DNA of 57,253 nt from a virus. Taxonomy: Duplodnaviria; Caudoviricetes. This document shows positions 702 through 55,868 of this stretch, piece by piece. Under the pieces are notes generated by a model. It was not told where the DNA came from. It did not search any database and saw only the letters and a list, made by a program, of their open reading frames with translations. Location: IMG/VR virus record IMGVR_UViG_3300046352_000133, positions 1-57,253 of that record. The stretch is one strand, 5' to 3'. The translations under genes and the position numbers were made by a program. Numbering within the stretch: position 1 is the first letter of the stretch; each line of letters opens with the position of its first letter.

Positions 702-702
702 G

Positions 703-27746: not shown

Positions 27747-30700
27747 ATGTCTGTAATTAAAAAAACCCTATTTGATGAAAAGCTAGAAAAAGTAAATGTA
27801 TTAATAAATGATACAGATGCTAATAGTAAGTATTTCAAAATAACCGAACTTAATGATACATTTACTGGCGGTAAAAATGCATTCCTTATTCAAGGTTCTG
27901 AATATTTGGTAAGTGATACTATAATCAAAATCCAAATAAAAGATGCAAATGGTAATACTATTTATTATGAACCAGGAGAAGGTATGGTTTCCTCTTCTGT
28001 AAATGGAGAACCGTTTGTATCAGAATATTATGAAGGAACATCAAAAGTAGTTTCGGTTTACATCTACCCAAACAAAACAATAGATACAAATGGCAATCCA
28101 TCGGATGGAACTGCATTTGGACCTGCTACGATTACCATATTAGGTGAATTAAAAGAATACGAATCAAACGGATTAGTATTACCAATTCCACCCGAATGGG
28201 AGGGGCAGTATAGTGTAAAATGGACAAGAACGGTAAATATAAATCCATCATTACCGAATGTTACAAAGATTCGTTTTTACAAAAGACCAACTGCAACTAT
28301 TAAAGAATTGTTGCAACCATTGTATAGTATTGATGGTGGTACTGGATTAAAAGTAGATTCTGGAATAAGTCAATCATTTGCTCAAATAAACCTTTCCAAT
28401 TTAGAAACATTTGCAGGTGATGTAAAAAGAGTAAAAGTTTTTAGAACATCGCAAGGTGATATTTCTGATTACGATTTAATACAAGATGTTTTATTAGAAT
28501 CAAAAGAATTACTAACTACATATGGGTTAAGTGGTAGTGTAATTGGAGAAACAGGTATATTTACATCGGAAACTTTACAAAATTATTGGAATACAGGTTC
28601 TTTAAGAGCAGAACTTACTTCAAGTAGAATAGAAAGTGGATTAAAATTATCAGGTAGTGGTATATTTGCATATACTCAATCATTAGATTTAAGTTCTACC
28701 AATACATACGAATTAAATTTAGATGCATTTTATTCATCATCTGTAAGTTCTAATTTAGGAATATATTTAAGTTATACTACTGAATCAAAAACAGTTAGTA
28801 GTAGTATTGGAACTTTATATGGATTAGCACCAACAAAAAACCTTTTAGATACAGTAATACCATTTACTATTGGAAGTAATTACCCATCTGCATCTTTATA
28901 TTTTTCTCAATCAAGAGGAGAATGGCATTTAGGTAATATAAGTTTAAAACTATCAGAGGATACGGCATTCTCACCAGATAGTGTTTCGTTTATTACAACG
29001 ATGCCAACTATATTAGGAAATGATTTATTTAATTTTAAATTTGAGTTTTATGATTTAAATAACAACTATGTTCCGGTATTTGTAACTCAAAGTGCAACAT
29101 TCGTTGGTAGTCAAAGAGCAATAAATACGGATGCAATTATAAGCGCATCACTTTCACAATCATTAGATGCTTTGTATAAAGTATCATCTTCTATTAGTGG
29201 AACAATGACTACATACAGTTCATCAGCTAGTGGTAGTATTACAGTAGTTAGTGGTTCTGTATTTAGTTTAAGTGGTTCGGTAAGTACATCAGTATTACTA
29301 TTAACTGGTTCAATTAGTTCATCATTATCATCTTCATTTGGATTTACAAGTAGTTCCGTTTATACATTAAGTGGTAGTGTTAGTTCATCATTATCATCGT
29401 TGAGTTCATCCGTAAGTCAAAGTATATATCAAGGATTATTACCCGCATTTACAAAAGTTCAACAATTAGCAGATGGTAATTATAGTGGTTCATTTATAAG
29501 TGGTAATATAATTTACGCACCTGTAATAGGTGGCCAGTTAGGATATTTTAGTACGTTATTTAAAGTTGGACAATCACCTAATTCAATTTATTTAGATGCA
29601 AGACAAACTCCTAGAAAAATATTCATAGGTGGGGTAGTACCAGGTGGAGGAGATACGGAATCATCAGGAGCATACAATAATACAAATACATCTGTTTACT
29701 TAGATAGTGCAGGTCAATTCTCATTAGGTAATAAATTATCATATGATGGAACAAACTTATCAGTAAATGGAACTATAAATGTAACTGGTGGTGATGCGGC
29801 AACTGATGCAAATGCTTTATTATATTCACAAAGAGCAGCTGCTTCGGCATCAATATCGGCATCAACTGCATATACAAGGTTACAATCTTTGGCAGATGGT
29901 GGATATAGTGGCTCGTTTATAGGTAGTACAACCATTTATTCTCCAAATATTGGTGGACAAAACGGATACATTTCAAACATATTAAAAGTTGGACAAAATG
30001 GTATAACATTAGATGGTGGTAATAGAAAAATATATGTAGGAACAGGAACTTATGGAAATGCAAATACTCCATTTTATTTTGCATCAGGTTCTACAAATGT
30101 ATTTTCATTAGGTGATAAACTTACATTTGATGGAAGTAATTTAAGTGTTAATGGTAATGGAACATTTAGTGGTAATTTATCAGCAGCAGGTGGTTCATTT
30201 ACCGGAACATTGGTTGCAGCGGGTGGTTCATTTTCAGGACAAATAAGTGCAGCAAGTGGGCAAATTGGAGGCTGGACAATTGATAACTCTTCAATATATG
30301 TTCCAAATGCAATTTCATTCAACTCTTCTGCAAAAACTATAACAATTTCCGAATCAAGTGGAACACCTAGAATATTAATCAATCAAAATACTTCATTTAG
30401 TTCTTTGACTGCGGGTTCTCCATCAACCGTATCCGCTGGAACTACTGTTAATAGTGGTGTGTATTCATTTGGTGATTATGATAGAACATTAGGAACGATT
30501 GCAACCGTTAGTGGTAGAAGTTACAATATTACAAGTACATTTACTGCTACAAATGGTATAAATGCTATAACATTGAGTGCGGGTGCATATTCAATTAGTG
30601 TATATTCTAAAATTATAATAGATAATGGTGTAACTACTATTGAAGTTGCACAAGAATCAGATGGTGTATCTGGTTACAATACTACGGCAACATGGAGTGC

Positions 30701-31328
30701 TATAAATGGTGCAGTTCATAATTCAACTCTTACGGGTAATGGAAATACTTGGACAGTAATTCAAAGATTTTCAATGAACATTATGGGTGCACCTGGTGGT
30801 ACATATGCTTCATCATATACCCAACCTGCGGTTAGTGTAACAATGGCAGGGGCAAACTCATTTGTTGAAATTATTGCAGGTGGTATTCAAGTTGGTAGAG
30901 ATTCTGCAAACTATGTAATTATGGATAGAACTGGTACTAATCCTATGTTGCAAGTTGGTGGAGATGGTACATTTACAGGTGATGTAACGGCAAATACTTC
31001 GGATAGACGATTAAAGAATAATATTAGAGTAATAGATAATCCATTAGAAAAATTATCAAAAATAAATGGTGTATATTTTAATTGGAATGATGTTGCTAAG
31101 GAATTGGCAAATAAAAGTGATGTTGAAGAAGTTGGATTTTTAGCACAAGAAGTTCAATCTGTATTACCACATATTATTAAACCTGCTCCTTTTGATATTG
31201 ATACAAAAACAGGAGAATCTAAAAGTGGTGAAAATTATCTGACAATTCAGTATGAAAAAATAGTTCCATTATTAGTGGAAGCAATAAAAGAATTAAAAAA
31301 AGAAATTGACGAATTAAAGAATAAGTAA
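27747..31328 (+). CDS. Tail fibre/spike with C-terminal intramolecular chaperone (peptidase S74)
   Basis: Ser/Gly-rich fibre repeats, GQIGGWTI, then SDRRLKNNI...GVYFNWN...[12 protein letters not shown]...[15 protein letters not shown]. Confidence 0.88.
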
Positions 31329-32755
31329 TGGCATTACCACCATCGGGAACAATTAAAATGTCGCAAATAAAAGCTGAATTGAGTTCAACATCGAATTCAT
31401 TGAGAGCATATAACGTCATTGCAAAAGCTGCTACATCTAATGTAAAATTTGATGCTCCTGATAAATTAAGTGATTTTTATTCGTATTTAAGTGGAACTAC
31501 AACTACAACTGTTACACCAACCGTAACACCTACTCTAACACCAACAGTTACACCAACGGCTTCACCAACTACAACTATACCACCATTAACTATAACAAAT
31601 AGTGGTGTAACTTGTTCTGGTGCACTTGGTGCATTCACTTCAACAATTGCAGGGGGCAGTGGTACATATAGTTTTATTGCAATTGCAACCTCACAAGCAG
31701 ATGCATCTAACGCGGTTAATGATATTAGTGGTACAAGATATTCAGTATCATCTAATCCATATTTATGGACTAATATATCAAACGGTACTTATTATGTTGC
31801 GGTAAAAGATTCGTTGGGTACGGTAACGGTTCAAGGAGCATCAGTAACAGTAAATTGTATTCCACCAACAGTTACTCCAACAGTTACACCAACTGCAACG
31901 CCTACTTTAACACCTACTCTAACACCAACTATTATACCAACGGCTTCTCCAACTACAACTATACCACCATTGACATTATCAAATAGTGGTGTAACTTGTT
32001 CTGGCGCAGTAGGTTCGTTTACTTCAACAATCGCAGGAGGTACTGAAACATATAGTTTTATTGCAATAGCAACTTCTCAAGCAAATGCAGATAATGCAGT
32101 AAAAGGAATTAGTGGAACAAGATATTCTATATCACAAAATCCATACCCTTGGAATAGTATTTCAAATGGTACTTACTATGTAGCGGTAATGGATTCGGCA
32201 GGAACTGTTACAGTTCAAGGTGCATCGGTAACAGTAAATTGTATTCAGCCAACTGTAACACCAACTGCAACACCAACGGTTACTCCAACAGTTACACCTA
32301 CGAATACACCGACTGTTACACCTACGGCTACACCAACGGATACACCAACTACTAGTACCACTACGGCTACACCAACTGTAACACCAACTGCAACACCAAC
32401 GGTTACTCCAACAGTTACACCTACGAATACACCGACTGTTACACCTACGGCTACACCAACGGATACACCAACTACTAGTACCACTACGGCTACACCAACT
32501 GTAACACCAACTGCAACACCAACGGTTACTCCAACAGTTACACCAACGGCTGCACCAAATGATTGCCAACAATATAATTTGTATAATGGTGATAGTCAAT
32601 ATTCAGATTTTTATACTTATCAGTCTTGTGATGGGAATTGGAATTACGATGTTGAATTACAATATAGTGGGTTTGTATATATTTGTGCAAGAACTGGAAC
32701 AGTTAGTGCAGGTGGTGCAATAGATGTAAGTGCTGCACTAGGTGCATGTTCATAA
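31328..32755 (+). CDS. Mucin-like Thr/Pro-rich virion protein with two Cys-flanked beta domains
   Basis: N-terminus [18 protein letters not shown]...LSDFY, typical of genes following S74 fibres; three (PTxT)n tracts; two ~128-aa repeats ending GTYYVAV.DS.G...VTVNC; Cys-rich C-terminus. Confidence 0.8.
31553..32245 (+). repeat. Diverged direct duplication, period 384 bp (128 aa)
   Basis: ccaacggcttc(a/t)ccaactacaactataccaccatt at 31553 and 31937; both copies end acagtaaattgtatt. Confidence 0.85.
32249..32544 (+). repeat. Perfect tandem repeat, 123-bp unit, ~2.4 copies
   Basis: Units start at 32249, 32372 and 32495 and encode [41 protein letters not shown]. Confidence 0.92.
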
Positions 32756-32786: not shown

Positions 32787-33758
32787 ATGAAAAATTTAAG
32801 ATTTATATGTGCTCAACCTGCTATTACTTATTACGTTTGGCAAGTTGAAACTATGATAAACAATTTTATGGAGATGGGTATAAACCCTAATCAAATTGAT
32901 ATTGTTTGTAGTATTGGAGATGATGGGATTCCATCGGATTGGTCAAAATTGGCTAATAGGTATCCCGCAAGATTTCTTTTCTATAAAGATATTCGTGTAA
33001 CTAAACACTATGTTTCATCTATCAGACCTAATATACTTAAACAACATTGGTTAAGATTTCCTGAATTAAAAGATGAAGTAATTCTTTATCACGATTGTGA
33101 TATACTTTTAACAAAACCACCTAAAGATTGGATTACCGAAGAAATGCTTACTGATGATAATTGGTATGGTAGTGATACAAACTCATATATTTCTTATGAT
33201 TATATCAAAGAAAAAGGTGATGATGTATTGGACTTAATATGCACAATAGCAGGCATTAGCAAAGAACTACTTAAAGAAAATAATCTAAATTGTATAGGAG
33301 CTCAATATCTTATGAAAGGTATTACTAATTGGTATTGGGAAAGAGTTGAGTTTGATTGTGAATTAATGTTCAAATATGTTACTGAATTAAATAATCAAAA
33401 AATTATTGAGGATAGAAGAACAATGCCACCCGAAGAAGACAGAATACCATACCACCCTTTACAAATTTGGTGTGCCGATATGTGGGCGGTATTATGGGGA
33501 GGTTGGAAAATGGGAAAGAAAACAATTTGCCATCCTAACTTTGAGTTTAGTTGGGGAACACATAGTGAAGATGATTGGAATAAGTTTAATATATTTCACA
33601 ATGCAGGAGTTTTAAATACTATGGATGAACTATTTTACAAAGGTAATTGGATGAATGAATTACCATATGGTAAGGAGTTAAATATTAAAGAAAATACAGC
33701 ATCATTAAAATATTGGGAATGGGTTAGTAAAACGGGAACTACATCATGTTTGATTTAA
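32787..33758 (+). CDS. GT-A glycosyltransferase resembling GT95/GT96 peptide O-glycosyltransferases
   Basis: YYVWQ near the N-terminus, YVSSIRPNILKQHWL, DxD (HDCD), IGAQYLM, WCADMWA and IFHNAG. Start placed at ATG 32787 after the A-rich leader. Confidence 0.6.
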   Translation: MKNLRFICAQPAITYYVWQVETMINNFMEMGINPNQIDIVCSIGDDGIPSDWSKLANRYPARFLFYKDIRVTKHYVSSIRPNILKQHWLRFPELKDEVILYHDCDILLTKPPKDWITEEMLTDDNWYGSDTNSYISYDYIKEKGDDVLDLICTIAGISKELLKENNLNCIGAQYLMKGITNWYWERVEFDCELMFKYVTELNNQKIIEDRRTMPPEEDRIPYHPLQIWCADMWAVLWGGWKMGKKTICHPNFEFSWGTHSEDDWNKFNIFHNAGVLNTMDELFYKGNWMNELPYGKELNIKENTASLKYWEWVSKTGTTSCLI

Positions 33759-34741
33759 GACCTATATTTTTTTATTGGGATGGGTTTATTCATTCGGATA
33801 GATTACAAATATTAAAAGATTGCATATATTCAACAAGATTATGGAATCCAAAACACAATATAGTTTTAATTTCAAATAATTTAACACAAGACTTATTTGA
33901 TGATAGATTTGCAATAGAAGTTCGTAAATGGGATAAATCATTTTTTAGTGGATTACCTATACCTGAAGAGAAATTAGATAAATACATTAATTCACATCCT
34001 AGAGATTTTAGTGATTTATTTAGATTAGTTCTACTATATCAATTTGGTGGTAGTTACATCGATACTGATGATTTAGGTATTAAGGCAATATCGGATACAC
34101 CAAACTTAATTTGTAGAAGTTATGACCCACATACATCATTTTATTCTAAAATAGATGCAGATGGTTGTGTGCCAGGTTGGACAAGAGAATTAAGAGGATG
34201 GGATAACATCAATATGTTTCCACGCAATGATTGTTGGCATAACTTTGAACCTAAATCTGAATTCATAAAAGATTTACTTTGGAATGATAACTTCTTATCT
34301 AATAAGGATATTGTTTCTATATGTGGAGAGTTAAGTTGGCAAGGTTTAACTAATGATACTTGCATTAAAAGATTAGAAGGATTTGGAACGGAATGGAACT
34401 TTGGTTTAACTTTACTTTATTTATTTGAAGATTTTATATCAGTAAGTTCACAATGGGATAGATGTGTATTAGGTGGGGAAATGTGTGAACTATGGAAAAA
34501 ATTACCAAATGTAAACGATTACGATTGGGGGTTTTATAAATGTAAACGGGATGATGCATTAGAATTTTATAATATAATATATAACTTATACCCAAATCTT
34601 TCACATATGTGGCTTCATCATAAAAATGAAAAAGCTGAGTGGATGTTAAATGAATTAGATGAGGATGGTTTATATTCAGTTTCTACTTGGATATATTGGG
34701 ATATAAAACAAAAAATAAAAAAATATGAGCGAAAAATGTAA
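33746..34741 (+). CDS. Glycosyltransferase, GT32/Och1-like DxD family
   Basis: IFFYW, CIYS...NP and SDLFRLVLLYQFGGSYIDTD. Confidence 0.85.
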   Translation: MFDLRPIFFYWDGFIHSDRLQILKDCIYSTRLWNPKHNIVLISNNLTQDLFDDRFAIEVRKWDKSFFSGLPIPEEKLDKYINSHPRDFSDLFRLVLLYQFGGSYIDTDDLGIKAISDTPNLICRSYDPHTSFYSKIDADGCVPGWTRELRGWDNINMFPRNDCWHNFEPKSEFIKDLLWNDNFLSNKDIVSICGELSWQGLTNDTCIKRLEGFGTEWNFGLTLLYLFEDFISVSSQWDRCVLGGEMCELWKKLPNVNDYDWGFYKCKRDDALEFYNIIYNLYPNLSHMWLHHKNEKAEWMLNELDEDGLYSVSTWIYWDIKQKIKKYERKM

Positions 34742-39272: not shown

Positions 39273-40031
39273 ATGCTACAAGACTTAATATACATAAAGA
39301 ATACTCTAACAAATAATATTGAATTTAATGAGTACCAGGAACAAGAAGAAATACCAATCCCTTACAGATGGTCTCACGGAGCTACTGATACTCATTTAGG
39401 AGATGGTTTAATTATCTATTCTCTTATTCAGTATATGAGAGCAAAAGTTTGCGTTTGTTTAGGTAGTGGTGGGGGGTTTGTACCTAGACTAATGACACAG
39501 GCAAGAATAGATTTACACAGGCAACATATATTCGAAGGTAATGATGATTTAAATTGGGGAGATATTGGATGCACTTATGTAGTTGATGCTATGAATGGTA
39601 TTGGTGGTAAGGTAGATTGGTTCAAAGAAGAATCATTTTTCAGAAGAACATTTCATCCTCGTATTTTAGGAACTACAACAGAGGAAGCTTTTCATAACCA
39701 CTTTGTATTAAATGATATTAAAATTGATTACTTACATATAGATGCAGGACATAGCTATGAAAATGTTAAAGAAGATTTTGAATTATATTCCCAACTCCTA
39801 TCCCCAAATGGAATTATTTCTATTCACGATACTGACCCTAATTTTGCGGATAGTTACTTAGTTACAAACGAAGTTAAAGATAGAAACGACCATGAAGATT
39901 GGAATGGTCCTATTCAGTTTGTAAAAGAATTAAAAGATAATCCGAAATGGGAAACATTTGATTTGTTTAACTTTGGAATAGTAAAAAATAAACCATCATC
40001 AACAGGTCTTACATTAGTTAAAAGAAAATGA
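39273..40031 (+). CDS. Class I SAM-dependent methyltransferase (Methyltransf_24-like)
   Basis: VCLGSGGG, IDYLHIDAGHSYE..KEDF and LSPNGIISIHD. Confidence 0.85.
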   Translation: MLQDLIYIKNTLTNNIEFNEYQEQEEIPIPYRWSHGATDTHLGDGLIIYSLIQYMRAKVCVCLGSGGGFVPRLMTQARIDLHRQHIFEGNDDLNWGDIGCTYVVDAMNGIGGKVDWFKEESFFRRTFHPRILGTTTEEAFHNHFVLNDIKIDYLHIDAGHSYENVKEDFELYSQLLSPNGIISIHDTDPNFADSYLVTNEVKDRNDHEDWNGPIQFVKELKDNPKWETFDLFNFGIVKNKPSSTGLTLVKRK

Positions 40032-40924: not shown

Positions 40925-41113
40925 ATGACAGAAGAAGAATTATCATTAGAAAAAAGAAAAGTAAAAGCATTAGAAAAGATTGCAACTACAATGGATGCAC
41001 TTACCGTTTGGTTTGAAGAAATTGAAAAAGATGAGTGGGGTGATAGAATACAATGGTATTTAGCTGAATTTTTAAAAACAACGCAGCCAAAAGACCCAAC
41101 AATTGATGGATAA
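40925..41113 (+). CDS. Small hypothetical protein
   Basis: 62-aa ORF after an A-rich leader, overlapping the next start. Confidence 0.7.
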   Translation: MTEEELSLEKRKVKALEKIATTMDALTVWFEEIEKDEWGDRIQWYLAEFLKTTQPKDPTIDG

Positions 41114-42404
41114 AAAATTAGGAATAATTGTTCCTTATAGAAATCGTTTTGAACATCTTGAAGAATTTAAACAATCAATAGTTAAATATCTTAATGATAA
41201 TGGTTATACAAATTATACAATCATTATTGTTGAACAAGATGATGCAAAGTTGTTTAATCGTGGAATGCTACTTAATATTGGATTTAAGGAATCAAAAAAA
41301 CTTAAATGTGATTATGTAGTATTCCACGATATTGATATGCTACCAATTGATGTAGATTATTCTTTTTCAGATGTGCCTATACATTTGGCAACTGATAATA
41401 TACCTTTTGAATCTTACTTTGGAGGGATGGCATTATTTCCCTCACAGATATTCGAACAAATAAATGGCTTTTCTAATTTATATTGGGGTTGGGGATTTGA
41501 AGATGATGATTTGAGATATAGATGTGTAAAAAATAATGTATCTTTTGAAAAATATATAGTACCACAAACCACAGAATCAAAATTACCAATCTTTAATGGA
41601 GTTGATGCATATGCAACAATTTCAAATATTATAAATTACAATAGAAGTTTTAAAATAAAATTAGATATTAATTTAGATAGAGTTGTTTATGATGTAGATA
41701 AGCAATTTGATATATTTCCTATTTTATCAATAAAAGGTTACGATTTTAAACTTTTTTATAATTCTTTTAATAGATTTTATTTGCAACTTTTTGATAAAAA
41801 AGGTAATTATTACGATGTTTATTCTGATATTGTATCTACATCACATAATACTATAAAAATTGAATATGATAGAAATGAGAACATAATTAATTTTTTAGTA
41901 AATGAAAAATTAAATACTATCTATTTTTCAAATAGCATATATAATTATTCTAATGTAGATAAAATTATAATTGGTTCGGATGATGAAAAAAAAGATTTTT
42001 TTAAAGGAAGTATAAATGAATTTTTATTAGAACAAAACGATGAAATAAAGATACATTATAAAAATTATAATATTAAAAATTATTACTTTACTGATATTTC
42101 GGGTAATAAAAACAATGGTGAATTATTTAATGTTTATTTAGATTATTTTAAAGATTTTAAAAATTATTATTCATATGTGCCATTTAGAAGAAATAGTAAA
42201 TTATTAAAATTAAAACATGATGACTGTGGATTTAATGATGGACGATGGAGAGATGATAATAGTAGATGGAATCAGTTGAGATATAATAATGAAGTTCAAA
42301 ACGGATATAGAGATGATATAGAAGATGGATTATCTACATTAAAGTATCAGCTTTATGCAAAAATAAAAGAAGATAAAATAACTCATTTAAATGTTGGGAT
42401 ATGA
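41106..42404 (+). CDS. GT7 beta-1,4-galactosyltransferase-like enzyme with an inserted LamG-like domain
   Basis: IIVPYRNR..HL, EQ....FNRGMLLNIG, FHDID, YFGG, NGFSN.YWGWGFEDDD; insert FNGVDAY...FFKGSINEF...DISGNKNNG; terminal DGLSTLKY. Confidence 0.88.
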   Translation: MDKKLGIIVPYRNRFEHLEEFKQSIVKYLNDNGYTNYTIIIVEQDDAKLFNRGMLLNIGFKESKKLKCDYVVFHDIDMLPIDVDYSFSDVPIHLATDNIPFESYFGGMALFPSQIFEQINGFSNLYWGWGFEDDDLRYRCVKNNVSFEKYIVPQTTESKLPIFNGVDAYATISNIINYNRSFKIKLDINLDRVVYDVDKQFDIFPILSIKGYDFKLFYNSFNRFYLQLFDKKGNYYDVYSDIVSTSHNTIKIEYDRNENIINFLVNEKLNTIYFSNSIYNYSNVDKIIIGSDDEKKDFFKGSINEFLLEQNDEIKIHYKNYNIKNYYFTDISGNKNNGELFNVYLDYFKDFKNYYSYVPFRRNSKLLKLKHDDCGFNDGRWRDDNSRWNQLRYNNEVQNGYRDDIEDGLSTLKYQLYAKIKEDKITHLNVGI

Positions 42405-43807
42405 AATTAGGTGTATGTGTTCCGTATAGAAACAGAGAGGAGCACTTAAAGGAGTTTGTACCGATTGTATCAAAGTTTTTAGAATCAAAAGATATTGATT
42501 TTAAAATATACTTTGCCCATCAAACTGATGACAAACTATTTAATAGAGGCGCAATGAAAAACATTGCTGCTAAACACGCATTTGAAGATGGTTGTGATTA
42601 CATCGTATGGCACGATATAGATATGGTTCCAGAGGATGACACTTGCGATTATTCGTTTCCTAATGATAACCCCCAACACATTGCAGTTCGTATCTCACAA
42701 TCCGATTATCAACTAAAATATGAAGAATACTTTGGAGGTGCGGTTCTATTCTCAAAAGAGCAAGTAGAACGAACAAACGGATACTCTAATGATTATTGGG
42801 ATTGGGGTATGGAAGATGATGATTTGTTTTGGAGATGTGTAAAAGAAGGATATGCAAACAAAACTAAATTAGATTACAATGAAGAGCAAGTTGTAGCATA
42901 TTTTAATGGTGTAGATTCTAAAATTGAATTCAAACCATCCAGAGAACAAAGAGCATGTTTATCGGATTCACATACCGTTTCTATATTAGTAAAAGCAGAC
43001 CAACAGATAGAAAAAGTTCCTATTTGGTTGATTGGTGATTCTGAAAGACAATTTGTAGAGTACCCAATATTCAGAAAGCCAGGTTACGATTGGGGTTTAT
43101 CATTTAACAACAGTAGAGCATATACAATGCAACTTTGGGATAGAATGAAAAATCATATATACCAATGGATTAAGAGATATGAAAACCAATGGACTTGGGT
43201 TACGATGGCAGTTGATGCTGAAACTAAAAAAATACATTTCTACTTAAATGGTAGAGAAAGTGATGCAAGATTGGGAACAGGAACACAATCTCCTTTTACT
43301 TACGAAGAACCATTAAAAAGATACGGAACGGAGCCGTTTTATGTTGGGTATTCAAACTCACCAAACGAATCATTTTTTAAAGGAGGAATTGCATCAATTG
43401 CAATGTGGAATAGGCGTTTAACTCCTGATGAAATAAAAAACATACACACCGAATTTCCAAATGATGGGTTAGTATTAGACCTTTTTACTATGGGATTGGA
43501 TTTTGGAGAATCTACAAATATAGAATTTAAAAAAGAAAATATAGAAATCCCACACACCATATTACCACATAGAATAAATGGTAAATTTAGATGTTTGCCT
43601 CACCAAACGGAGGGGTTAATAAATGAGGGTGGAATTGATAAATGGGCAAAGGGAGAAACAACTGCAAAAAATGAAAGAAGATATATATTAGAAATGCAGC
43701 AGGATAAAATTGATTACAAATCCGATGGCATAAATTCAGTTAGTTATCAGTTGGTATCCGTTGATACGATTGATGGAAAACATCAAATGATAAATGTAAA
43801 ATTATAG
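42401..43807 (+). CDS. GT7 beta-1,4-galactosyltransferase-like enzyme with an inserted LamG-like domain
   Basis: VPYRNREEHL, FNRG, WHDID, YFGG, NGYSNDYWDWGMEDDD; insert with WTWV...FYLNG...FKGGIASIAMWNRRLTPDEI; terminal DGINSVSY. Confidence 0.88.
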   Translation: MKLGVCVPYRNREEHLKEFVPIVSKFLESKDIDFKIYFAHQTDDKLFNRGAMKNIAAKHAFEDGCDYIVWHDIDMVPEDDTCDYSFPNDNPQHIAVRISQSDYQLKYEEYFGGAVLFSKEQVERTNGYSNDYWDWGMEDDDLFWRCVKEGYANKTKLDYNEEQVVAYFNGVDSKIEFKPSREQRACLSDSHTVSILVKADQQIEKVPIWLIGDSERQFVEYPIFRKPGYDWGLSFNNSRAYTMQLWDRMKNHIYQWIKRYENQWTWVTMAVDAETKKIHFYLNGRESDARLGTGTQSPFTYEEPLKRYGTEPFYVGYSNSPNESFFKGGIASIAMWNRRLTPDEIKNIHTEFPNDGLVLDLFTMGLDFGESTNIEFKKENIEIPHTILPHRINGKFRCLPHQTEGLINEGGIDKWAKGETTAKNERRYILEMQQDKIDYKSDGINSVSYQLVSVDTIDGKHQMINVKL

Positions 43808-43809: not shown

Positions 43810-45225
43810 ATGGCAGAAGAAAAAACATATTCGGAAAACCCGATATATTTACAGGTAAAAGATGATTTAGATAGTGTAGGTCCTGGTATGTGTTTAGCAA
43901 AATGGACACAGGTTACATTACAATTACAAAATGGACACAACCACTCTTGCCACCACCCTACAACTCACAAAATTTCAGAAGCGGAAATAGCAAGAAATCC
44001 ATCTGCATTACATAATACAAGACATAAAAAACTTCGTAGAAAAGAAATGTTGCAAGGTGCAAGGCCTACGGAGTGTGATTATTGTTGGAAGGTGGAAGAT
44101 AATTCAGACCGTTTTTCTGATAGAATATTTAAGTCGGGTGAAAGTTGGTCTTGGGATTATAAAGAAGAAATATTTAATTCAGATTGGAGAGAAGACTATA
44201 CCCCAAAATATGTAGAAGTTGCATTTTCTAATGCATGTAATTTTAAATGCTCTTATTGTGGACCTGCATATAGTTCTAAGTGGGTAGAAGAAATTGAAAA
44301 ATATGGTGGATACCCTACAACAGATAATTTTAATTCTAATGAGTGGTTAAAAACAGAAAACAAATTTCCTATTCTACATAGTGAATATAATCCATATATT
44401 GAAGCATTTTGGAAATGGTGGCCTGATTTGTATAGAGAGTTGCATACATTCAGAATTACAGGTGGAGAACCTTTATTATCAAAAGATACTTGGGGAGTAT
44501 TAGATTATATATTAGAACACCCTAATCCAAATAGAGAATTAAAATTGGCAATTAATTCTAACTTAGGTGTTCCAGATAAGTTAATTGATAGGCTAATTGA
44601 AAAAATTAAAAGATTAGAAGATGAAGGTCGGGTGAAAGAACTTATAATTTTTACATCAACAGATGGTTGGGGTAAACAAGTTGAATATGTTAGAACCGGT
44701 ATGGAATTTAATAAATTTTGGGATAATGTAAACAAAATATTGGCTGCATCAAATAGGACGAATGTAACAGTTATGTCTACATACAATGCATTAAGTGTAT
44801 TTAGTTATCCAAAATTAATTCAAGAAATATATTCATTAAAAGATAGTTTTGCAAGTACCGATAGATATTGGAACTCAGCAGTATTTTTGGATTCATCTTA
44901 TTTAAGACATCCACAACATCAAACTGTTCAAGTTTTACCCCATCAGTTTTCTAATAACATATTGGACCAATCTAAATTAATTACATATTACGCAGCACCA
45001 TCTTTTAGTCCCAAACATATTGGATATTCGGATGTTGAAGTTCAAAAAGTAAAAAGAATTTATGATTGGATGGTTTCACCGCAAGATGCATCAGAACAAA
45101 TGAAAAATAGGTACAACTTTTATAAATACTTTACGGAGCATGATAAAAGAAGAGGATTGAATTTTTGCAAAACATTTCCTGAATTAGAAGAATTTTATAA
45201 CTTTTGTGGAACAATACAGATATGA
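43810..45225 (+). CDS. Radical SAM protein with N-terminal twitch/SPASM-like Cys cluster
   Basis: CNFKCSYC, ITGGEPLL, INSNL; N-terminal CLAKW...SCHH...CDYCW. Confidence 0.9.
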   Translation: MAEEKTYSENPIYLQVKDDLDSVGPGMCLAKWTQVTLQLQNGHNHSCHHPTTHKISEAEIARNPSALHNTRHKKLRRKEMLQGARPTECDYCWKVEDNSDRFSDRIFKSGESWSWDYKEEIFNSDWREDYTPKYVEVAFSNACNFKCSYCGPAYSSKWVEEIEKYGGYPTTDNFNSNEWLKTENKFPILHSEYNPYIEAFWKWWPDLYRELHTFRITGGEPLLSKDTWGVLDYILEHPNPNRELKLAINSNLGVPDKLIDRLIEKIKRLEDEGRVKELIIFTSTDGWGKQVEYVRTGMEFNKFWDNVNKILAASNRTNVTVMSTYNALSVFSYPKLIQEIYSLKDSFASTDRYWNSAVFLDSSYLRHPQHQTVQVLPHQFSNNILDQSKLITYYAAPSFSPKHIGYSDVEVQKVKRIYDWMVSPQDASEQMKNRYNFYKYFTEHDKRRGLNFCKTFPELEEFYNFCGTIQI

Positions 45226-45971
45226 GTTTAAGAGTAGATAAAAATAATATATATTTTATATTACCAGAAAGTAGATATTCCGTTTCTAATAAAATAGATG
45301 GATATATGGAAGAAGATTTTACTTTGCATATTACTGCAAAATTATTTCCAGAAACCATAACGAATACTGAATCATTTTTAATAGCTAGAAATGGAATGCA
45401 TAGTGGTGTTTCCACATTTAAAGATGAACACAACATTGTAAATATTATGTTTACATATTGGTTTAATGATAAAAATGGTAATCCAAAAGTAAAACAAATA
45501 ACATATAAAGTACCTGATTTGTTACTTAACGGGTTTAACAGATACACTATGATTTGTGACCATAATAACGAAAAAAAAATTAGTTGTTATGTAAATGATG
45601 AAATTGTTGGTGAAATGTTATATGGGGATGATGTAAAACAAACTTATGAAAACGGATTTTATTGGTTTGGTTGTGGAAGTATGATTGGTCCAGAAGAACA
45701 TAGAGCATTTGGTGTTTTTGAATATAGACTTTCTTTTGTTTCAAACAAAAATCTTTCATTGCAAGAATTAAAAGATTTTACTGGTAGTTACAAAAGTAAA
45801 TACTCAGAAGTAATTTTTGGTGATTTGCGTAGATTAAACAATGATTGCCCTTATATAGAAAATTTTGCATTTGTATGTGATTTTGAACATTGCAATAGAT
45901 ACAAAGTTTGGGATTTAAGTTTTAGTGGAAATTACCCACAATTTTATATAAAAGATAATATATATTTCTAA
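45222..45971 (+). CDS. Hypothetical protein, LamG/concanavalin-like fold
   Basis: DFTLHI, IARNGMHSG, CYVND and VWDLSFSGN. ATG 45222 overlaps the upstream TGA (ATGA). Confidence 0.55.
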   Translation: MSLRVDKNNIYFILPESRYSVSNKIDGYMEEDFTLHITAKLFPETITNTESFLIARNGMHSGVSTFKDEHNIVNIMFTYWFNDKNGNPKVKQITYKVPDLLLNGFNRYTMICDHNNEKKISCYVNDEIVGEMLYGDDVKQTYENGFYWFGCGSMIGPEEHRAFGVFEYRLSFVSNKNLSLQELKDFTGSYKSKYSEVIFGDLRRLNNDCPYIENFAFVCDFEHCNRYKVWDLSFSGNYPQFYIKDNIYF

Positions 45972-45979
45972 AAGGTTAT

Positions 45980-46951
45980 ATGAAAATATTAATTACAGGT
46001 GGTGCAGGTTATTTGGGTTCTGTTATTACTGGCAGAATGCTAGAAGAAGGACATGAAGTTGTTGTTTTGGATAAATTATTATTCAATCAAACTTCTTTGT
46101 TACAATACACTTCAAATCCAAAATTCAAATTTATTTATGGAGATGTTAGGAACTACGAACTCCTAAGAGGACTTTGCACAGATGCAGAAGTTATTATTCC
46201 ATTGGCAGCAATCGTAGGATTTCCTGCTTGTGCAGCAGACCCAAAGTTAGCAAAAGAAATTAATTTTGAGCAAATCCTAAACATTATTAAAATAACAAAA
46301 GGAAAAGGCAAAAAGATTTTATATCCAAATACAAATAGTGGTTATGGATTAGGAGAAGGTGAATTAGAATGTACGGAAGAATCTCCATTAAAACCAATAT
46401 CAGTTTATGGAACTACAAAGGTAGAAGCGGAAAAGTATTTAAAAACAAATACTGATGCAATTATATTCAGATTAGCAACTGTATTTGGTGTATCACCTAG
46501 AATGAGAACCGATTTGTTGGTAAATGATTTTACTTACAAAGCAATTACAGATAAATACATTGTTGTTTTTGAAAGAGAATTTAAAAGAAACTTTATTCAT
46601 ATTCAGGATGTAGCAGATGCTTTTGTGTTTATGTTAAACAACTATGATACACACAAAGGACAAGTATTCAATGTAGGATTGAGCGATGCAAATTTAAATA
46701 AACAACAATTGTTAGAAACTATACAAGGACACGTTACCGATTTTGCAATATCTTACAATGATTTCTATGAAGACCCTGATAAAAGAGATTACATAGTTTC
46801 TAATGCAAAAATAGAAGCAACTGGTTGGTATCCTAAATGGAGTTTAGATATGGGTATTGCCGAACTTATAATGGCATACCAAATGATAGTTCCAAAAATG
46901 GGAGCAGAGTTTAGAAACGGATTCCCATTAGGTTACGCAAAAAATACATAA
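45980..46951 (+). CDS. NAD-dependent nucleotide-sugar epimerase/dehydratase (extended SDR)
   Basis: ILITGGAGYLG, LAAIVG, canonical YGTTK, RLATVFG.SPRMR.DLLVN and RNFIHIQD. Confidence 0.92.
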   Translation: MKILITGGAGYLGSVITGRMLEEGHEVVVLDKLLFNQTSLLQYTSNPKFKFIYGDVRNYELLRGLCTDAEVIIPLAAIVGFPACAADPKLAKEINFEQILNIIKITKGKGKKILYPNTNSGYGLGEGELECTEESPLKPISVYGTTKVEAEKYLKTNTDAIIFRLATVFGVSPRMRTDLLVNDFTYKAITDKYIVVFEREFKRNFIHIQDVADAFVFMLNNYDTHKGQVFNVGLSDANLNKQQLLETIQGHVTDFAISYNDFYEDPDKRDYIVSNAKIEATGWYPKWSLDMGIAELIMAYQMIVPKMGAEFRNGFPLGYAKNT

Positions 46952-46952
46952 T

Positions 46953-47489
46953 ATGAGTTCAAATTGGAAAGAGTTTGAAATAACTCCATCAAAGAAATTC
47001 CGAAACGAAGTAGAAACATACACACCATCAATTTATAGAGAATACAGAGGTGAGATATTTACAACATTTCATTCAGAGGAACATCCTGTAATGTTAAAAC
47101 TTGCACCATATGTTTCAGTACATGGGAGATTCTCTCGTTCTTATAAAGGAGTATTGAGAGGATTACACTATGATACTAAAACTTGGAAGTTAGTTCAAGC
47201 AGTAGTTGGAGATATATACCTCATTGTTTTGGATGTAAGAGAAGATTCTCCTACTTATGGAGATTGGGAATCATTCATTATATCTGAACGTAACAGACAA
47301 CAGGTATTAGTTCCTCCTGGGTTCGCAAATGGTCACTTTGCACTTACTGATTGTATGTTTCATTATAATTTATTTTACGATGGACAGTATGTGGATGCAA
47401 ATGAGCAAGGTGTAATCAAATGGAATGACCCCGAGTTTCAAATGGAATGGCCTAATAATCACCCAATTTTACAAAAAAGAGATAGATGA
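46953..47489 (+). CDS. rmlC: dTDP-4-dehydrorhamnose 3,5-epimerase family (RmlC cupin)
   Basis: RG.I, SRSYKGVLRGLHY, KLV....G.IY...LDVREDSPTYG.W, VPPGFANGH and IKWNDP. Confidence 0.9.
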   Translation: MSSNWKEFEITPSKKFRNEVETYTPSIYREYRGEIFTTFHSEEHPVMLKLAPYVSVHGRFSRSYKGVLRGLHYDTKTWKLVQAVVGDIYLIVLDVREDSPTYGDWESFIISERNRQQVLVPPGFANGHFALTDCMFHYNLFYDGQYVDANEQGVIKWNDPEFQMEWPNNHPILQKRDR

Positions 47490-48121
47490 TACAAAACATA
47501 AAAAAATACAAAACTTTAGATGAGGTAGATACCAACCTCACATCACAAGATTTAATCGATTTTGAAAATGGAATAGTAGAGCAATGGGAAGGTGGTAAAA
47601 TACGAGGACCTATACATTTATCAAATGGAAATGAAGAGCAACTAATAGAGATATTTAAAAGAATATCTGCAAACGATTGGGTGTTTTCAACTTGGAGGTC
47701 TCACTATCATGCATTATTACATGGTATTTCACCTGAATGGATTACAAACGAAATATTAGATGGCAAATCTATCACTCTTTGTAATTTAGATGAGAAGTTT
47801 TATTCATCCGCAATTGTAGGTGGAACGTTATCTATTGCATTGGGTGTAGCAATGGGATTAAAACAAAAAGGAAGTGATGAGAAAGTTTGGTGTTTTATAG
47901 GAGATATGTCTTTTGAAAGTGGTATATTCTATGAAGTTCACAAATATGCAAGAAACTTTGATTTACCTATTTATTTTGTTATTGAAGATAATGATGTTTC
48001 AACTTACACTCCAACGGAAGCAACTTGGAGTACAAAAAGAGAAATACCAAAAGATGTAATTTACTACAAATATAAATCTAAATATCCACACTACGGAAGT
48101 GGTAAATGGGTAGTTTTTTAA
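47486..48121 (+). CDS. TPP-dependent enzyme, E1-alpha-like subunit (short form)
   Basis: GKIRGPIHLSNGNE, STWRSHYHAL, SAIVGG and TPP motif GDMS.ESG...EDN. Confidence 0.88.
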   Translation: MIQNIKKYKTLDEVDTNLTSQDLIDFENGIVEQWEGGKIRGPIHLSNGNEEQLIEIFKRISANDWVFSTWRSHYHALLHGISPEWITNEILDGKSITLCNLDEKFYSSAIVGGTLSIALGVAMGLKQKGSDEKVWCFIGDMSFESGIFYEVHKYARNFDLPIYFVIEDNDVSTYTPTEATWSTKREIPKDVIYYKYKSKYPHYGSGKWVVF

Positions 48122-48122
48122 T

Positions 48123-49313
48123 ATGTTATACAATTCGGAATTAAATAGTTTTAAAAGGTTTATATCAGAATGGGATATTGATTCCGAATATGTTTTATTC
48201 GGTGCTAGTAAGGAGTGTGTCCAATTCATTAGAACTATGGACTTCTTATTTGGTTCTGAAAAATTAAAGATAAAATGTATTGTAGACCATAGTGTAAAAA
48301 CTGGTATTGCAAACAATCTAAATGAGGTAAGTGAATATTACCACCAATCAAAAGATTTTAATAATAGCAGAACCAATATACAATTGGTAAACATAAATGA
48401 TTTTGATAAACAAGGGGATGTTATTATAACAACTGATGAGTTTAGAAAAAATTATCAAATCTATTTAGAAGAGCACAAAATAAAACACACTTGGTATAAA
48501 AACATTGCTGCTATCTGGCCGTATGATTATCTAAACAAAGTTCATATATTCCAAAGTGATGTATTAGTAACGGAGAAATGCAACTTAAATTGTTCTCATT
48601 GTAATATGTTTATTCCACACTTTGAAATGCCAAAACATAGAGAGTTAGATACGATGATAAAAGATATTGATTCTTATTTCAATATCGTTGATTATGTTAG
48701 TGTATTTCATTTAGTAGGGGGAGAGCCATTTTTACATCCACAAATTGAAAATGTTATTCAACATATTTTATCAAACTACATAGATAAAATTGACAAGTTT
48801 ATAATAACAACTAACGGTAGTATTGCTCCCAAACCATCTACAATTGAATTACTAAAGAGTAGTAATGTGATTTTGAGTGTAAGTAATTATTCAGATAAAT
48901 TACAAAAACTAAAAACTAAAGTTGAAAAAGTAATTGGTATTTACAAATCAAATGGTATCAAACACTATGTTAGAAATGAAATAGAGTGGTATGATTTTGG
49001 TGATTTAAGAGTTAAAAAGAATCTACCAACAGATAAACTAATCAAACACTTTGATTCTTGCACTGCTCCATTTAGAGGATTAAATGATGGTAAATTTTAT
49101 TACTGTCATTTAAATACGGGTGCAGTTTTGACAAAGTTATTCCCATTAGATAAAAACGATTATGTTGAAATAGATAAAATATCAAAAGAAGATTTACTTA
49201 AATTTGATTTAGGATATACTGATTTAGGATATATTACTTTTTGTGATAATTGCAATGGTTGTAATACAGGAATTAAAATACCTGTAAGTTATGAAAAGCA
49301 AGGGGTAAGATGA
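48123..49313 (+). CDS. Radical SAM protein with N-terminal Rossmann-like segment and C-terminal Cys cluster
   Basis: VLFGAS; CNLNCSHC, VGGEPFLHP, TTNG; C-terminal C...GKFYYC...CDNCNGC. Confidence 0.88.
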   Translation: MLYNSELNSFKRFISEWDIDSEYVLFGASKECVQFIRTMDFLFGSEKLKIKCIVDHSVKTGIANNLNEVSEYYHQSKDFNNSRTNIQLVNINDFDKQGDVIITTDEFRKNYQIYLEEHKIKHTWYKNIAAIWPYDYLNKVHIFQSDVLVTEKCNLNCSHCNMFIPHFEMPKHRELDTMIKDIDSYFNIVDYVSVFHLVGGEPFLHPQIENVIQHILSNYIDKIDKFIITTNGSIAPKPSTIELLKSSNVILSVSNYSDKLQKLKTKVEKVIGIYKSNGIKHYVRNEIEWYDFGDLRVKKNLPTDKLIKHFDSCTAPFRGLNDGKFYYCHLNTGAVLTKLFPLDKNDYVEIDKISKEDLLKFDLGYTDLGYITFCDNCNGCNTGIKIPVSYEKQGVR

Positions 49314-50725
49314 TAATAGTTGATATAGATAATACACTTGCTAACAATTTAGATAGATACAAACTAGCAACTAACTCTGATGGTACTATAAATTGGGATG
49401 TGTTGTATGATTACAATAATGTTATATTAGATAAACCGATTCAATATATAATAGATTCTGTTAAAATATGGAAACGTTTGGGGTATAGAGTTCTTTTATT
49501 TACAAGCAGACCAGAACAAATTAGAGAGGCAACCGAATATTGGTTAAACAAATACGATGTTCCATATGACGAATTACATATGAGAAGTATTGAAGAACAC
49601 TATATTAAAGATACAGAATTAAAAAGAAAAATGCATGACAAATTTGTAAATGAAGAAGTTTTATTTGCAATAGATGATAAGCAGGAAATAATAGATTTGT
49701 GGGAGCAATTGGGAATCAGATGCTACAAAGTAGATTCAATAGAATACCATACGGATTTATTATTGGAAGAAAAAAATTGGGAAAATCCTAAATCATTAAA
49801 AGAATTAGGATACATTTATTTTGGACCTTTATTATTTAATTATTTTGCTTGGTTAAAATCCGAATTAAATGGATGTGATAAAGTTTTGTTTAATTCAAGA
49901 GAAGGTTTATTTTTATTAGAAATTTACAATATATTTAAACAAAAATTTGATTTACCGGATGGGGTTTATTTTAAAACATCACGCAAACTTTCATTGGTAG
50001 CATCTCTTTTTAATAAAAACGATGTCTATGATTCTTTTAAATTACATAGATACAAAGGTAAATTATCCAATCTATTAAAAGATAGATTTAATATTATAGC
50101 AAGTGAATCCGATGTTGAAGTAGATACTCATATTGAATTACCAGATTTAAGTTTTTGTATGAATCAAATATTGCAAAAAGCAGAAGATACACGAAAACAA
50201 TATGGTGAATACATTAAGAGTATTATGGCAGATTCTAAAAATGTAGTAATGGTTGATAGTGGTTATCAAGGAACTACTCAACAAAATATAGAAAAAACTT
50301 ACAAATTAAAATTTAAAGGTAGGTATATAATTTACAAAAGTAATAATCTGTTAGAAGATGTAAAAGGTTTATATGATTTTAAAAAGTCTAAATTAAAAGA
50401 AAATTTAATTTTTTTAGAATCCGTATTCATAGATAGAGTAGGCAGTTATATTGATATTATAAATGGAGAATTTAAAAACGAAGAAATAAATAAAACACAT
50501 AAACACTTTGAAGATAAAATAGAAATAATAGAAGGTGTTAAACGTTTTGTTTTAGATATGTTAAAATTTGATATTGATACAAATAATGTTTCTTATCAAA
50601 AACCTGCTTATATATTTGATTTAATGTGTAACAAAGATTTTGTAAAAAACGATGTATTGTTTGAAAGTTTTTATCACGATAATTTATATGTTAGAGAAGG
50701 AGTAAAACGAATAGAAAGAAAATAA
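49310..50725 (+). CDS. HAD phosphatase (PNKP-like) fused to a polysaccharide-locus-type domain
   Basis: DIDNTLA, FTSRP, WL..Y.VPYDELHMR, AIDD; second domain FGP...LFNSREG...TSR...VDSGYQGTTQ. Confidence 0.75.
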   Translation: MIIVDIDNTLANNLDRYKLATNSDGTINWDVLYDYNNVILDKPIQYIIDSVKIWKRLGYRVLLFTSRPEQIREATEYWLNKYDVPYDELHMRSIEEHYIKDTELKRKMHDKFVNEEVLFAIDDKQEIIDLWEQLGIRCYKVDSIEYHTDLLLEEKNWENPKSLKELGYIYFGPLLFNYFAWLKSELNGCDKVLFNSREGLFLLEIYNIFKQKFDLPDGVYFKTSRKLSLVASLFNKNDVYDSFKLHRYKGKLSNLLKDRFNIIASESDVEVDTHIELPDLSFCMNQILQKAEDTRKQYGEYIKSIMADSKNVVMVDSGYQGTTQQNIEKTYKLKFKGRYIIYKSNNLLEDVKGLYDFKKSKLKENLIFLESVFIDRVGSYIDIINGEFKNEEINKTHKHFEDKIEIIEGVKRFVLDMLKFDIDTNNVSYQKPAYIFDLMCNKDFVKNDVLFESFYHDNLYVREGVKRIERK

Positions 50726-50726
50726 T

Positions 50727-52136: not shown

Positions 52137-52137
52137 A

Positions 52138-54182: not shown

Positions 54183-54187
54183 AGAAA

Positions 54188-55180: not shown

Positions 55181-55722
55181 TGAGCACACCTCAATTTTCT
55201 CCATACAAAGATGAACTAACAAAAGCAATGACATTTCTTGCTCAAAAAGAAGATACAATCTTTATTGGACAACAAATAGTTTATGCGGGAAACCCTATGA
55301 GTACAACTTTGGGGGAAGTTCCAAAAGAAAAAATGATTGAAGTTCCTGTGATGGAAGAAACGCAAATGGGAATGAGTTTAGGAATGGCAATGACGGGTAA
55401 AACCGTCATTACCTTTTATCCTCGTTGGGATTTTTTAGTATCGGCAACAAACCAATTGGTAAACCACGCTGATAAGTTTGAAAATATGACAGGTAAAAAG
55501 GCAAACATCATTATTAGAGTTGGTGTTGGTAGTACAAACCCATTAGACCCTGGTATCCAACATAGAAACAATTATACAAAAGAATTTAAATCTATCTTAC
55601 AATTTACAAAAATTTGGGAATTAAAAAATCCAAATGATATTTATAAGATATACACAGATGCGTATAACGAAGGTGGGGTTCACATTATAGTAGAATGGCC
55701 TGGATTATACTACGAAAACTAA
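55180..55722 (+). CDS. TPP-dependent enzyme, E1-beta/transketolase pyrimidine-binding domain only
   Basis: FIGQ, IEVPVMEETQMGMSLGMAMTG, ATNQLVNH, IIIR and GIQH; 180 aa, so the C-terminal domain is absent. Confidence 0.88.
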   Translation: MSTPQFSPYKDELTKAMTFLAQKEDTIFIGQQIVYAGNPMSTTLGEVPKEKMIEVPVMEETQMGMSLGMAMTGKTVITFYPRWDFLVSATNQLVNHADKFENMTGKKANIIIRVGVGSTNPLDPGIQHRNNYTKEFKSILQFTKIWELKNPNDIYKIYTDAYNEGGVHIIVEWPGLYYEN

Positions 55723-55727
55723 CTCAT

Positions 55728-55853: not shown

Positions 55854-55868
55854 TCTGTCAAATTTAAG

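Follow-up and report, generated by a model that had tools for sequence, protein, structure and literature searches.

A GT8-like glycosyltransferase encoded beside threonine-rich proteins of tailed phages, and predicted to prime their O-glycosylation

The 57,253-nt stretch of DNA analysed here (hereafter the window; positions 1 to 57,253 of the IMG/VR virus record IMGVR_UViG_3300046352_000133; Duplodnaviria, Caudoviricetes) carries on its plus strand a gene for a 323-aa glycosyltransferase (GT) of the GT-A fold (32787..33758; protein P0001, the target), which directly follows a gene encoding a Thr/Pro-repeat protein. The target has a conserved DxD motif and a conserved His, and across distant relatives its family is coupled to Thr-rich proteins or peptides. 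From these comparisons of sequences we propose that it is probably a cytoplasmic, metal-dependent peptide O-glycosyltransferase that primes the Thr tracts of phage proteins. Working in the host's cytoplasm ahead of virion assembly or in the course of it, such an enzyme would transfer a sugar from an NDP-sugar directly onto the hydroxyl groups of Thr (and Ser) in Thr-rich, Pro-containing tracts. In this phage, the acceptor would be the 475-aa Thr/Pro protein, whose gene lies between those of the tail fibre and the GT, and the GT32-like, GT2 and GT7-like enzymes and sugar-nucleotide genes encoded downstream would extend and decorate the glycan. This would yield a linker or brush that is mucin-like, extended and protease-resistant; by analogy with glycosylated Pro/Thr linkers and with the glycans of mycobacteriophages, its likely effect would be that of a glycan shield or of hydrated linkers that are stiff and resist proteases.

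The coupling to Thr-rich genes was ascertained in 80 IMG/VR loci encoding GTs that are 47-82% identical to the target. Their open reading frames (ORFs) were called and the loci were dereplicated at 85% GT identity into 52 clusters, 51 of which had an upstream ORF (L004 was dropped, being at a contig edge). An ORF was regarded as STP-rich when it had at least 70% Ser/Thr/Pro in a 30-aa window. The ORF immediately upstream on the same strand (position -1) was STP-rich in 40 of the 51 clusters, compared with 27 of the 806 remaining ORFs; Fisher's test gives p = 1.3e-40 without correction for relatedness. When all 80 loci are considered, STP-rich ORFs were found at position -1 (54/77) and position -2 (16/72), and at positions +1 to +4 there were none (0/289). 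The target-type GT stays beside the Thr-rich genes, while other GTs come and go between loci. The upstream proteins (200-2,231 aa) are made of small Cys-containing globular domains with poly-Thr linkers between them, and those with a complete N-terminus and an STP fraction of at least 0.7 form 16 BLAST-distinct groups as judged from their first 70 residues. Among these groups are one that matches phrog_1407, a major tail protein (E 1e-15), and one that matches phrog_14478, a virion structural protein (E 5e-186). A sequence-only reading of the window had inferred that the target is a peptide GT acting first on its Thr-rich neighbour; comparative genomics gives strong support to a peptide GT with the adjacent protein as its predicted acceptor, and priming is its probable role.

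In the window, the predicted acceptor is a 475-aa protein (31328..32755, plus strand) with 115 Thr residues (24%). It comprises an N-terminal domain of about 55 aa, two copies of an all-beta domain of about 95 aa and a C-terminal Cys-containing domain, with Thr/Pro linkers between them. Linker 1 (residues 52-90, 39 aa; 31481..31597) has 18 Thr and 7 Pro and overlaps a 12-nt array detected with Tandem Repeats Finder (TRF; 31506-31570); linker 2 (residues 177-218, 42 aa; 31856..31981) has 16 Thr and 11 Pro; and linker 3 (residues 306-410, 105 aa; 32243..32557) has 53 Thr and 24 Pro. All three are read on the plus strand. Linker 3 contains 2.4 copies of a 123-nt unit at 99% identity (32249-32548), a value that indicates a recent duplication, and the length of this linker may therefore vary among close relatives. 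The Thr codons of the gene are mixed (51 ACA, 43 ACT, 17 ACG and 4 ACC), as are those of the poly-Thr runs matched in other records, which argues for selection at the protein level and not for a simple DNA repeat. In the orthologous protein of locus L005 the globular domains are 57% identical to those of the window, and pure poly-Thr replaces the (TPTV)n of the window; Thr is thus the residue kept in the linkers. The repeat domain was modelled with a predicted local distance difference test score (pLDDT) of only 55.6, from an alignment of four rows, a model of too low a quality for comparing folds.

The same association was found in cultured phages. A tblastn search identified 77 isolate phage records with a homologue, all at less than 35% identity, from hosts such as Lactobacillus, Enterococcus, Staphylococcus, Lactococcus, Clostridium and Chryseobacterium. 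Nine of these 77 GT-positive records were picked by hand, non-randomly, across the host genera, and eight of the nine encode a tract of at least 80% Ser/Thr over 15 aa in the virion-module region examined. The GT gene comes immediately after that of the major tail protein in phiFL1A (Enterococcus), where the tracts form the C-terminal tails of both the major head and major tail proteins; in PMBT8 (Staphylococcus), where the major tail protein has the tract as its C-terminal tail; in phiCTP1 (Clostridium; L094), where the tracts are in a head protein and the portal (2356-3945); and in TPWB06 (L097), where it is in the prohead protease (14179-15300). The GT gene directly follows the major head protein gene in R3.3 (Lacticaseibacillus), with a tract at the C-terminal tail of that head protein; in VPE25 (Enterococcus), with a tract at the C-terminal tail of the major tail protein; and in 9183 (Enterococcus; L092), with a tract in a protein without known function that neighbours the baseplate. 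In MA9V-3 (Chryseobacterium), the GT gene comes after two genes for poly-Thr proteins, which bear the tracts. As a separate observation, the PMBT8 record has annotation gaps upstream of the GT (L093, 8053-12871), and its annotated major tail protein is a 105-aa C-terminal piece with the poly-Thr tail, which suggests an intron, an interruption by a homing endonuclease or a frameshift in the tail gene.

Phage phiFL1A allows a comparison with phages that lack the GT. Its major tail protein has the C-terminal motif PGETTGDY.NI, shared with tail proteins from phages of Streptococcus, Lactobacillus and Bacillus (SPP1), and runs past this conserved C-terminus with about 25 Thr/Ser residues; the start of the GT gene overlaps its stop. 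Eight homologous tail proteins from GT-less phages (8 of 76 records, chosen by hand across host genera in the same way) were compared with it. First, none of the eight proteins extends into a poly-Thr run. Second, a profile search found no GT of this family in the eight whole records, the only match being phiFL1A itself (E 4e-94). Third, the genes for the tail protein and tail chaperone have no other gene between them in these eight records. Fourth, none of the eight records has a run of eight Thr codons anywhere.

It is worth noting that phiFL1A has no other annotated GT. Hence, if this phage glycosylates its poly-Thr tails, the target-type enzyme must prime. This point bears on the possibility that virion proteins are glycosylated by the same pathway with the target acting as an extender, the first sugar on Thr being added by a neighbouring GT2 or GT32-like enzyme or by a host enzyme. 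We consider this unlikely, for the target-type GT is the one GT that remains beside Thr-rich genes while the others vary, phiFL1A encodes no second annotated GT and, in metagenomic fusion proteins, the target domain is almost always N-terminal, that is, first in order. In these fusions it is joined to GT2, Gly_transf_sug, GT6, GT7C, methyltransferase or radical S-adenosylmethionine (SAM)/SPASM domains, and one of them (P0004) combines the target domain, Gly_transf_sug and GT2 in the same order as the genes of the window. It is from these three features, persistence beside Thr-rich genes, the single annotated GT of phiFL1A and the N-terminal position in fusions, that we infer the priming role.

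Another line of evidence comes from bacterial chromosomes. A scan of one genome per prokaryotic species yielded 80 loci. Nineteen of them encode a single-domain protein, mostly on short contigs of metagenome-assembled genomes, and seven of these 19 have an STP-rich ORF at position -1. The other 61 encode 400-900-aa fusions on the chromosomes of Chitinophaga, Pedobacter, Sphingobacterium, Mucilaginibacter and relatives, and only one of the 61 has an STP-rich neighbour. Within 8 kb, 44 of the 61 fusion loci encode a homologue of a 728-aa bacteriocin exporter, which in locus L126 matches the peptidase-containing bacteriocin ABC exporter PCAT1 (4ry2) over its full length (E 9e-116), and 26 of them encode a homologue of the 425-aa protein found beside the L126 exporter, HlyD-like as judged by size and position only. 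Small ORFs with a double-glycine leader of the strict pattern ...LSREQLKNVLGG occur in 21 of the 61 fusion loci and in none of the 80 viral loci. In the 33 distinct precursor cores, the Ser+Thr fraction is 0.34 in the first 12 residues versus 0.19 in the rest, and the cores are then Cys-rich. The C-terminal halves of the Bacteroidota fusions had no sequence match in the PDB; three of 60 had BLAST matches to proteins of the window, and one metagenomic fusion carries Glyco_transf_7C. Several loci (L126, at about 1600-14900, L133, L147 and others of L111-L179) combine several double-glycine precursors, the two-domain GT, the PCAT-type exporter and the 425-aa protein; proteins of about 380-400 aa with signal-peptide-like N-termini were also noticed in the same clusters. 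Judging from their gene content, the clusters seem to represent glycosylated bacteriocin-type peptides of a class that is still undescribed. The same catalytic domain is thus found again beside ribosomal peptides, with Thr/Ser-rich stretches next to disulfide-rich domains, which provides independent support for a peptide acceptor.

Concerning the target itself, translation of positions 32787-33755 gave an uninterrupted frame of 323 codons. The TAA stop of the Thr/Pro gene (32753-32755) is followed by a spacer of 31 nt and the target ATG at 32787, confirming the distance given in the sequence-only reading. This ATG, and not the upstream GTG at 32742, is the true start, because the homologues share the N-terminus MKNLRF...AQP with the target. 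The five motifs that had been noticed are all present in the translation and in the order given, namely YYVWQ (residues 15-19; 32829-32843), YVSSIRPNILKQHWL (residues 75-89; 33009-33053), HDCD (residues 102-105; 33090-33101), WCADMWA (residues 228-234; 33468-33488) and IFH (residues 269-271; 33591-33599). In an alignment of 43 sequences, in which the relatives are 31-59% identical to the target, the columns W18, Y75, D103, D105, Q226, W228, M232, W233, H271 and N272 are invariant or at least 90% conserved, and G171, Q173 and G274 are also among the invariant or near-invariant positions. The motifs therefore exceed what chance would give, since they fall on these columns. On the basis of the GT-A fold, the D103-C104-D105 triplet (codons 33093..33101, plus strand; D105 invariant, D103 at least 90% conserved) is predicted to bind the metal and the NDP-sugar, and the invariant H271 of the H-N-x-G motif (codon 33597..33599, plus strand) is predicted to be the C-terminal metal-binding His of retaining GT-A enzymes. 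No hydrophobic segment or membrane anchor was found in the target (maximal Kyte-Doolittle mean over 19 aa, 0.89), which is therefore expected to act in the cytoplasm.

The target belongs to a large family that has no name. It matched no Pfam family at E<=0.1 and nothing in a sequence search of the PDB at E<=10, and megablast matched the 12-kb region to no isolate phage. The hidden Markov model (HMM) of phrog_4417, a family of unknown function, matched the target over its full length (E 1.5e-59), with residues 5-316 aligned to positions 2-291 of the 293 in the profile. A HMMER search of 1.84 billion representatives found at least 836 clusters (50% identity) at E<=1e-3, 330 of them at E<=1e-30, and a profile search of a 90%-identity collection found 4,297 proteins, of which the 120 listed are unnamed or "hypothetical". 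Two leads on a name led no further. The label "PqqD family peptide modification chaperone", a depositors' note on the phage 9183 member (L092, 11233-12102), was not reproduced among the 120 best homologues, which are unnamed, "hypothetical" or "Prophage pi2 protein 34"; and DUF7164, suggested by the Atlas of protein clusters, was checked on three phage homologues, which gave no Pfam match at E<=1.

An AlphaFold (AF2) model computed from the 43-sequence alignment was of high quality (pLDDT 96.9; predicted template modelling score, pTM, 0.93) and globular from residue 4. It has the Rossmann-like alpha/beta/alpha fold that binds nucleotide-sugars, with the DxD following a beta-strand (LYHD103CD105; strand residues 98-102). 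The top Foldseek matches in the PDB are all of the GT-A class, namely WbbM, the catalytic domain of UGGT, glycogenin, XXYLT1 and LgtC. Members of GT8 show the closest structural similarity, with LgtC as the top match at 11% identity, and sequence identity to the GT8/GT24 structural relatives (LgtC, glycogenin, UGGT) is 7-11%. The Pfam model Glyco_transf_8 did not match the target at E<=0.1 and is absent from the 13 families matched among the 43 relatives at E<=1. The model thus indicates a GT-A enzyme that is closest in fold to the retaining GT8/GT24 enzymes, from which we infer metal binding and retention of configuration (alpha-linkage). It would differ from LgtC, glycogenin and UGGT in its acceptor, predicted to be a Thr-rich peptide rather than a sugar. 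The structural comparison advised in the sequence-only reading returned GT8/GT24 as best matches, and kinship with the plant enzymes is not supported. That reading had also said that a best match to a sugar-extending GT with no peptide groove, together with a lack of activity on PT peptides, would count against it; LgtC, the top match, extends sugars, but 11% identity tells little of the acceptor.

The plant enzymes in question are the hydroxyproline arabinosyltransferases (HPAT, GT95) and the serine galactosyltransferase SGT1 (GT96), which are Golgi membrane proteins. Membership of the target in these families, as had been proposed from the motifs, is not supported, the Pfam HPAT model PF23452 having no significant match to it. 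With a cut-off of 23.9 bits, this model, also searched against the window, did not match the target. It matched one of the 43 relatives, at E=0.23, and in 30 GT-bearing records it missed every GT gene, its sole match there being an unrelated stretch of 44 aa (E 0.012). A protein-language-model search found that 19 of the 30 nearest named Atlas clusters have PF23452 members as a minority, the best cluster share being 10%; this proximity is a lead, not a test. That the target works like HPAT/SGT1 is plausible, in that both would, by our reading, prime the O-glycosylation of repetitive Pro-rich structural proteins. The differences are that the target is soluble, as opposed to membrane-anchored, and that its predicted acceptor is Thr instead of hydroxyproline (Hyp) or Ser. 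As regards folds, a published survey (PMC8476585) contains the prediction that GT95 is GT-A-like and that GT96 has a different, possibly novel fold.

Two further explanations take the acceptor to be something other than protein. In one of them, the target would glycosylate a host-envelope or free glycan (cell-wall polysaccharide, teichoic acid, or a precursor of lipopolysaccharide (LPS) or capsule), and its adjacency to Thr-rich genes would be incidental, as in a mobile accessory module of the tail fibre. Phage GTs that alter host surface glycans are described as well known (PMC12619734), and the large sugar-nucleotide island of the window could build a free polysaccharide. We nevertheless hold this explanation to be quite improbable, since the target has no membrane segment, neither a flippase nor a polymerase was seen among those window proteins that were compared with Pfam or PHROGs, and the gene lies inside the head and tail modules of strictly lytic phages. 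Moreover, it would leave unexplained both the poly-Thr tail that tracks the presence of the GT and the bacterial context, typical of peptides that are made on the ribosome and modified after translation (RiPPs). In the other explanation, the target would glycosylate modified DNA bases, in a hypermodification of the 5-hydroxymethylcytosine or 5-hydroxymethyluracil (5hmC/5hmU) type directed against restriction. A preprint describes DNA-hypermodifying phage GT clusters as widespread and able to adjoin structural genes (10.1101/2023.12.21.572611), and phiFL1A encodes a cytosine methyltransferase. Against this, the annotation of phiFL1A lists no hydroxymethylase or TET/JBP-type gene, and none was found among the window proteins scanned, a weak argument as the window represents about 24% of the genome. 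The association with Thr tracts and the bacteriocin-type clusters would again be left unexplained, and we regard a role in DNA modification as very improbable, more so than an envelope acceptor.

Several observations speak against priming of Thr tracts by the target, our preferred proposal. First, 11 of the 51 viral clusters have no Thr-rich gene at position -1. In a near-complete exception (G010), poly-Thr linkers are found about 27 kb away, in a virion-structural-like protein of 1,503 aa and in a 195-aa protein; in G013 (44% complete) and in four fragments, which are also exceptions, there is no run of eight Thr. Second, common descent links many of the 80 viral loci, and the counts thus overstate their independence. 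Third, phage Iacchus, the ninth isolate sampled, has no tract at the threshold in the 41 kb examined of its 138 kb; the record nevertheless has three runs of eight Thr codons. Fourth, the tracts of the TPWB06 prohead protease and the phiCTP1 portal are near the C-terminus of proteins that are internal or buried in the particle and not obviously surface-exposed, unlike what is expected from a simple surface shield. Fifth, most of the closest structures use sugar acceptors (LgtC, UGGT, GlyE, LARGE1, Skp1 GalT), and only glycogenin primes a protein. Sixth, at least six other GTs are encoded in the window and could serve as alternative primers, and 15 of the 61 bacterial clusters also have a separate GT2-like gene. 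Seventh, poly-Thr could be a flexible linker that travels together with the gene. Finally, the donor sugar, the acceptor residue and the stereochemistry that we suggest are deductions from sequence, and the biological effect, like the priming role, is put forward on comparative grounds.

The window (CheckV completeness about 24%; about 30% G+C) has nearly all its genes on the plus strand. Upstream of the Thr/Pro gene, and overlapping its start with its stop, is the gene for a tail-fibre protein of 1193 aa (27747..31328, plus strand), which matches 18 PHROG tail-fibre families (best E 6.3e-29). This protein has a long, Ser-rich, low-complexity middle part (63% Ser/Thr/Pro in 30 aa), and many tail-fibre PHROGs match its C-terminal 130 residues or so; the protein could be a further substrate of glycosylation, of the Ser type. 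Downstream, the end of the target gene is overlapped by 13 nt by a gene for a second GT of the Gly_transf_sug, DXD type (GT32-like; 33746..34741, plus strand; Pfam E 7.5e-07), a likely extender of the glycan. Then come, on the same strand, two GT2-family GTs (34725-35351 and 35348-36034; PF00535, E 4.8e-06 and 9.5e-15), a Methyltransf_24 methyltransferase (39273..40031; Pfam E 6.3e-11) and two adjacent GT7-like GTs of the beta4GalT type, with N and C domains (41103..43807), the second of which is fused to a Laminin_G_3/ConA-like lectin domain. The remainder of the window (43810..57253, plus strand) encodes sugar-nucleotide tailoring functions: radical SAM enzymes, three NAD epimerase/dehydratases, an RmlC-like 3,5-epimerase, a HAD phosphatase, a cytidylyltransferase and the split parts of a thiamine pyrophosphate (TPP) enzyme. 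The latter are separate genes, one for a TPP-binding E1/DXP-synthase-like part (47486-48121) and one for a transketolase pyrimidine-binding part (55180-55722), and occur alongside three radical SAM enzymes (43810, 48123 and, in relatives, one of the SPASM type), a combination that suggests branched-chain or otherwise unusual sugars.

Enzymes of the SPASM type, which often modify peptides, were also noticed close to the target family. In locus L005 a radical SAM-SPASM gene directly follows the GT (10918-12000), and a 658-aa metagenomic protein (P0009) is a fusion of the GT domain with a SPASM enzyme. Such an enzyme may introduce a second modification into the same Thr-rich substrates. At its other end (369-5462), the window carries auxiliary genes typical of aquatic phages, namely an IscA-like Fe-S assembly protein, a UvdE UV endonuclease, a peptide deformylase and a Nol-like carbamoyltransferase.

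To our knowledge, the mycobacteriophages are the only phage group documented to glycosylate their own virions. According to secondary descriptions, mycobacteriophage GTs (Che8 gp110, Corndog gp38 and partners) modify the phage's own capsid and tail-tube subunits at the C-termini, and the resulting glycans shield the particle from antibodies (PMC12619734, PMC12363180). Likewise, major head and tail proteins associated with the target family have their Thr-rich tails at the C-terminus. The GT genes of this family lie in head, tail and fibre modules, the glycans on the virion proteins being a prediction. The enzyme family appears to be different, as there is no mycobacteriophage among the 77 phage records found by tblastn, and the predicted acceptor is poly-Thr, in phages of Bacillota, Bacteroidota and aquatic bacteria.

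Other known systems offer partial parallels. The serine-rich-repeat adhesins of streptococci and staphylococci are primed by the GT-B pair GtfA/B, and there the substrates are exported bacterial adhesins, as opposed to virion proteins. Glycocins of the SunS type resemble the Bacteroidota paralogues, which also come with double-glycine-leader precursors and a PCAT-type exporter; the known glycocin transferases are of GT2 type, that is, of another family. In animals, the GalNAc-transferases (GT27) are retaining GT-A enzymes, Golgi-resident and provided with a lectin domain, that prime tandem repeats rich in Pro/Thr/Ser at their Thr/Ser residues. GT27 and the target belong to different families, with no sequence relation seen between them, yet the globular beads joined by glycosylated linkers in mucin-type proteins are analogous to the predicted phage product. 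Virion glycosylation by phage GTs and priming of Thr-rich repeats by GT-A enzymes are already known in kind, and what appears to be new is the enzyme family, the acceptor signature and the breadth of the association. A literature search, in which subscription journals and supplements were poorly covered, found no description of the target family, of phage poly-Thr tails as sites of glycosylation or of the Bacteroidota clusters.

Taken as a whole, a wider picture can be put forward tentatively, being more doubtful than the proposal for the target alone. Mucin-type O-glycosylation of poly-Thr would be widespread, and so far overlooked, in tailed phages (of many aquatic hosts and of Enterococcus and Staphylococcus, whose phages are of therapeutic interest), and one GT8-like family would prime it. 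In Bacteroidota, this family would also produce a new class of double-glycine-leader peptides with O-linked sugars. It would have a common origin with HPAT/SGT1, so that peptide-priming GT-A enzymes would form a lineage extending across domains of life.

If the proposed role is true, it would provide a function for a large unnamed family, and glycosylated virion proteins could be predicted from sequence alone, a prediction testable on phages that are already cultured. It would also explain the recurring poly-Thr "beads-on-a-string" proteins of aquatic phages, and draw attention to an unexplored group of bacteriocin-like peptides, putatively glycosylated, from Chitinophaga, Pedobacter and Sphingobacterium. 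Together, these data suggest that mucin-like sugar coats are common on phages, which would bear on their immunogenicity, stability, adherence to mucus and recognition of the host.

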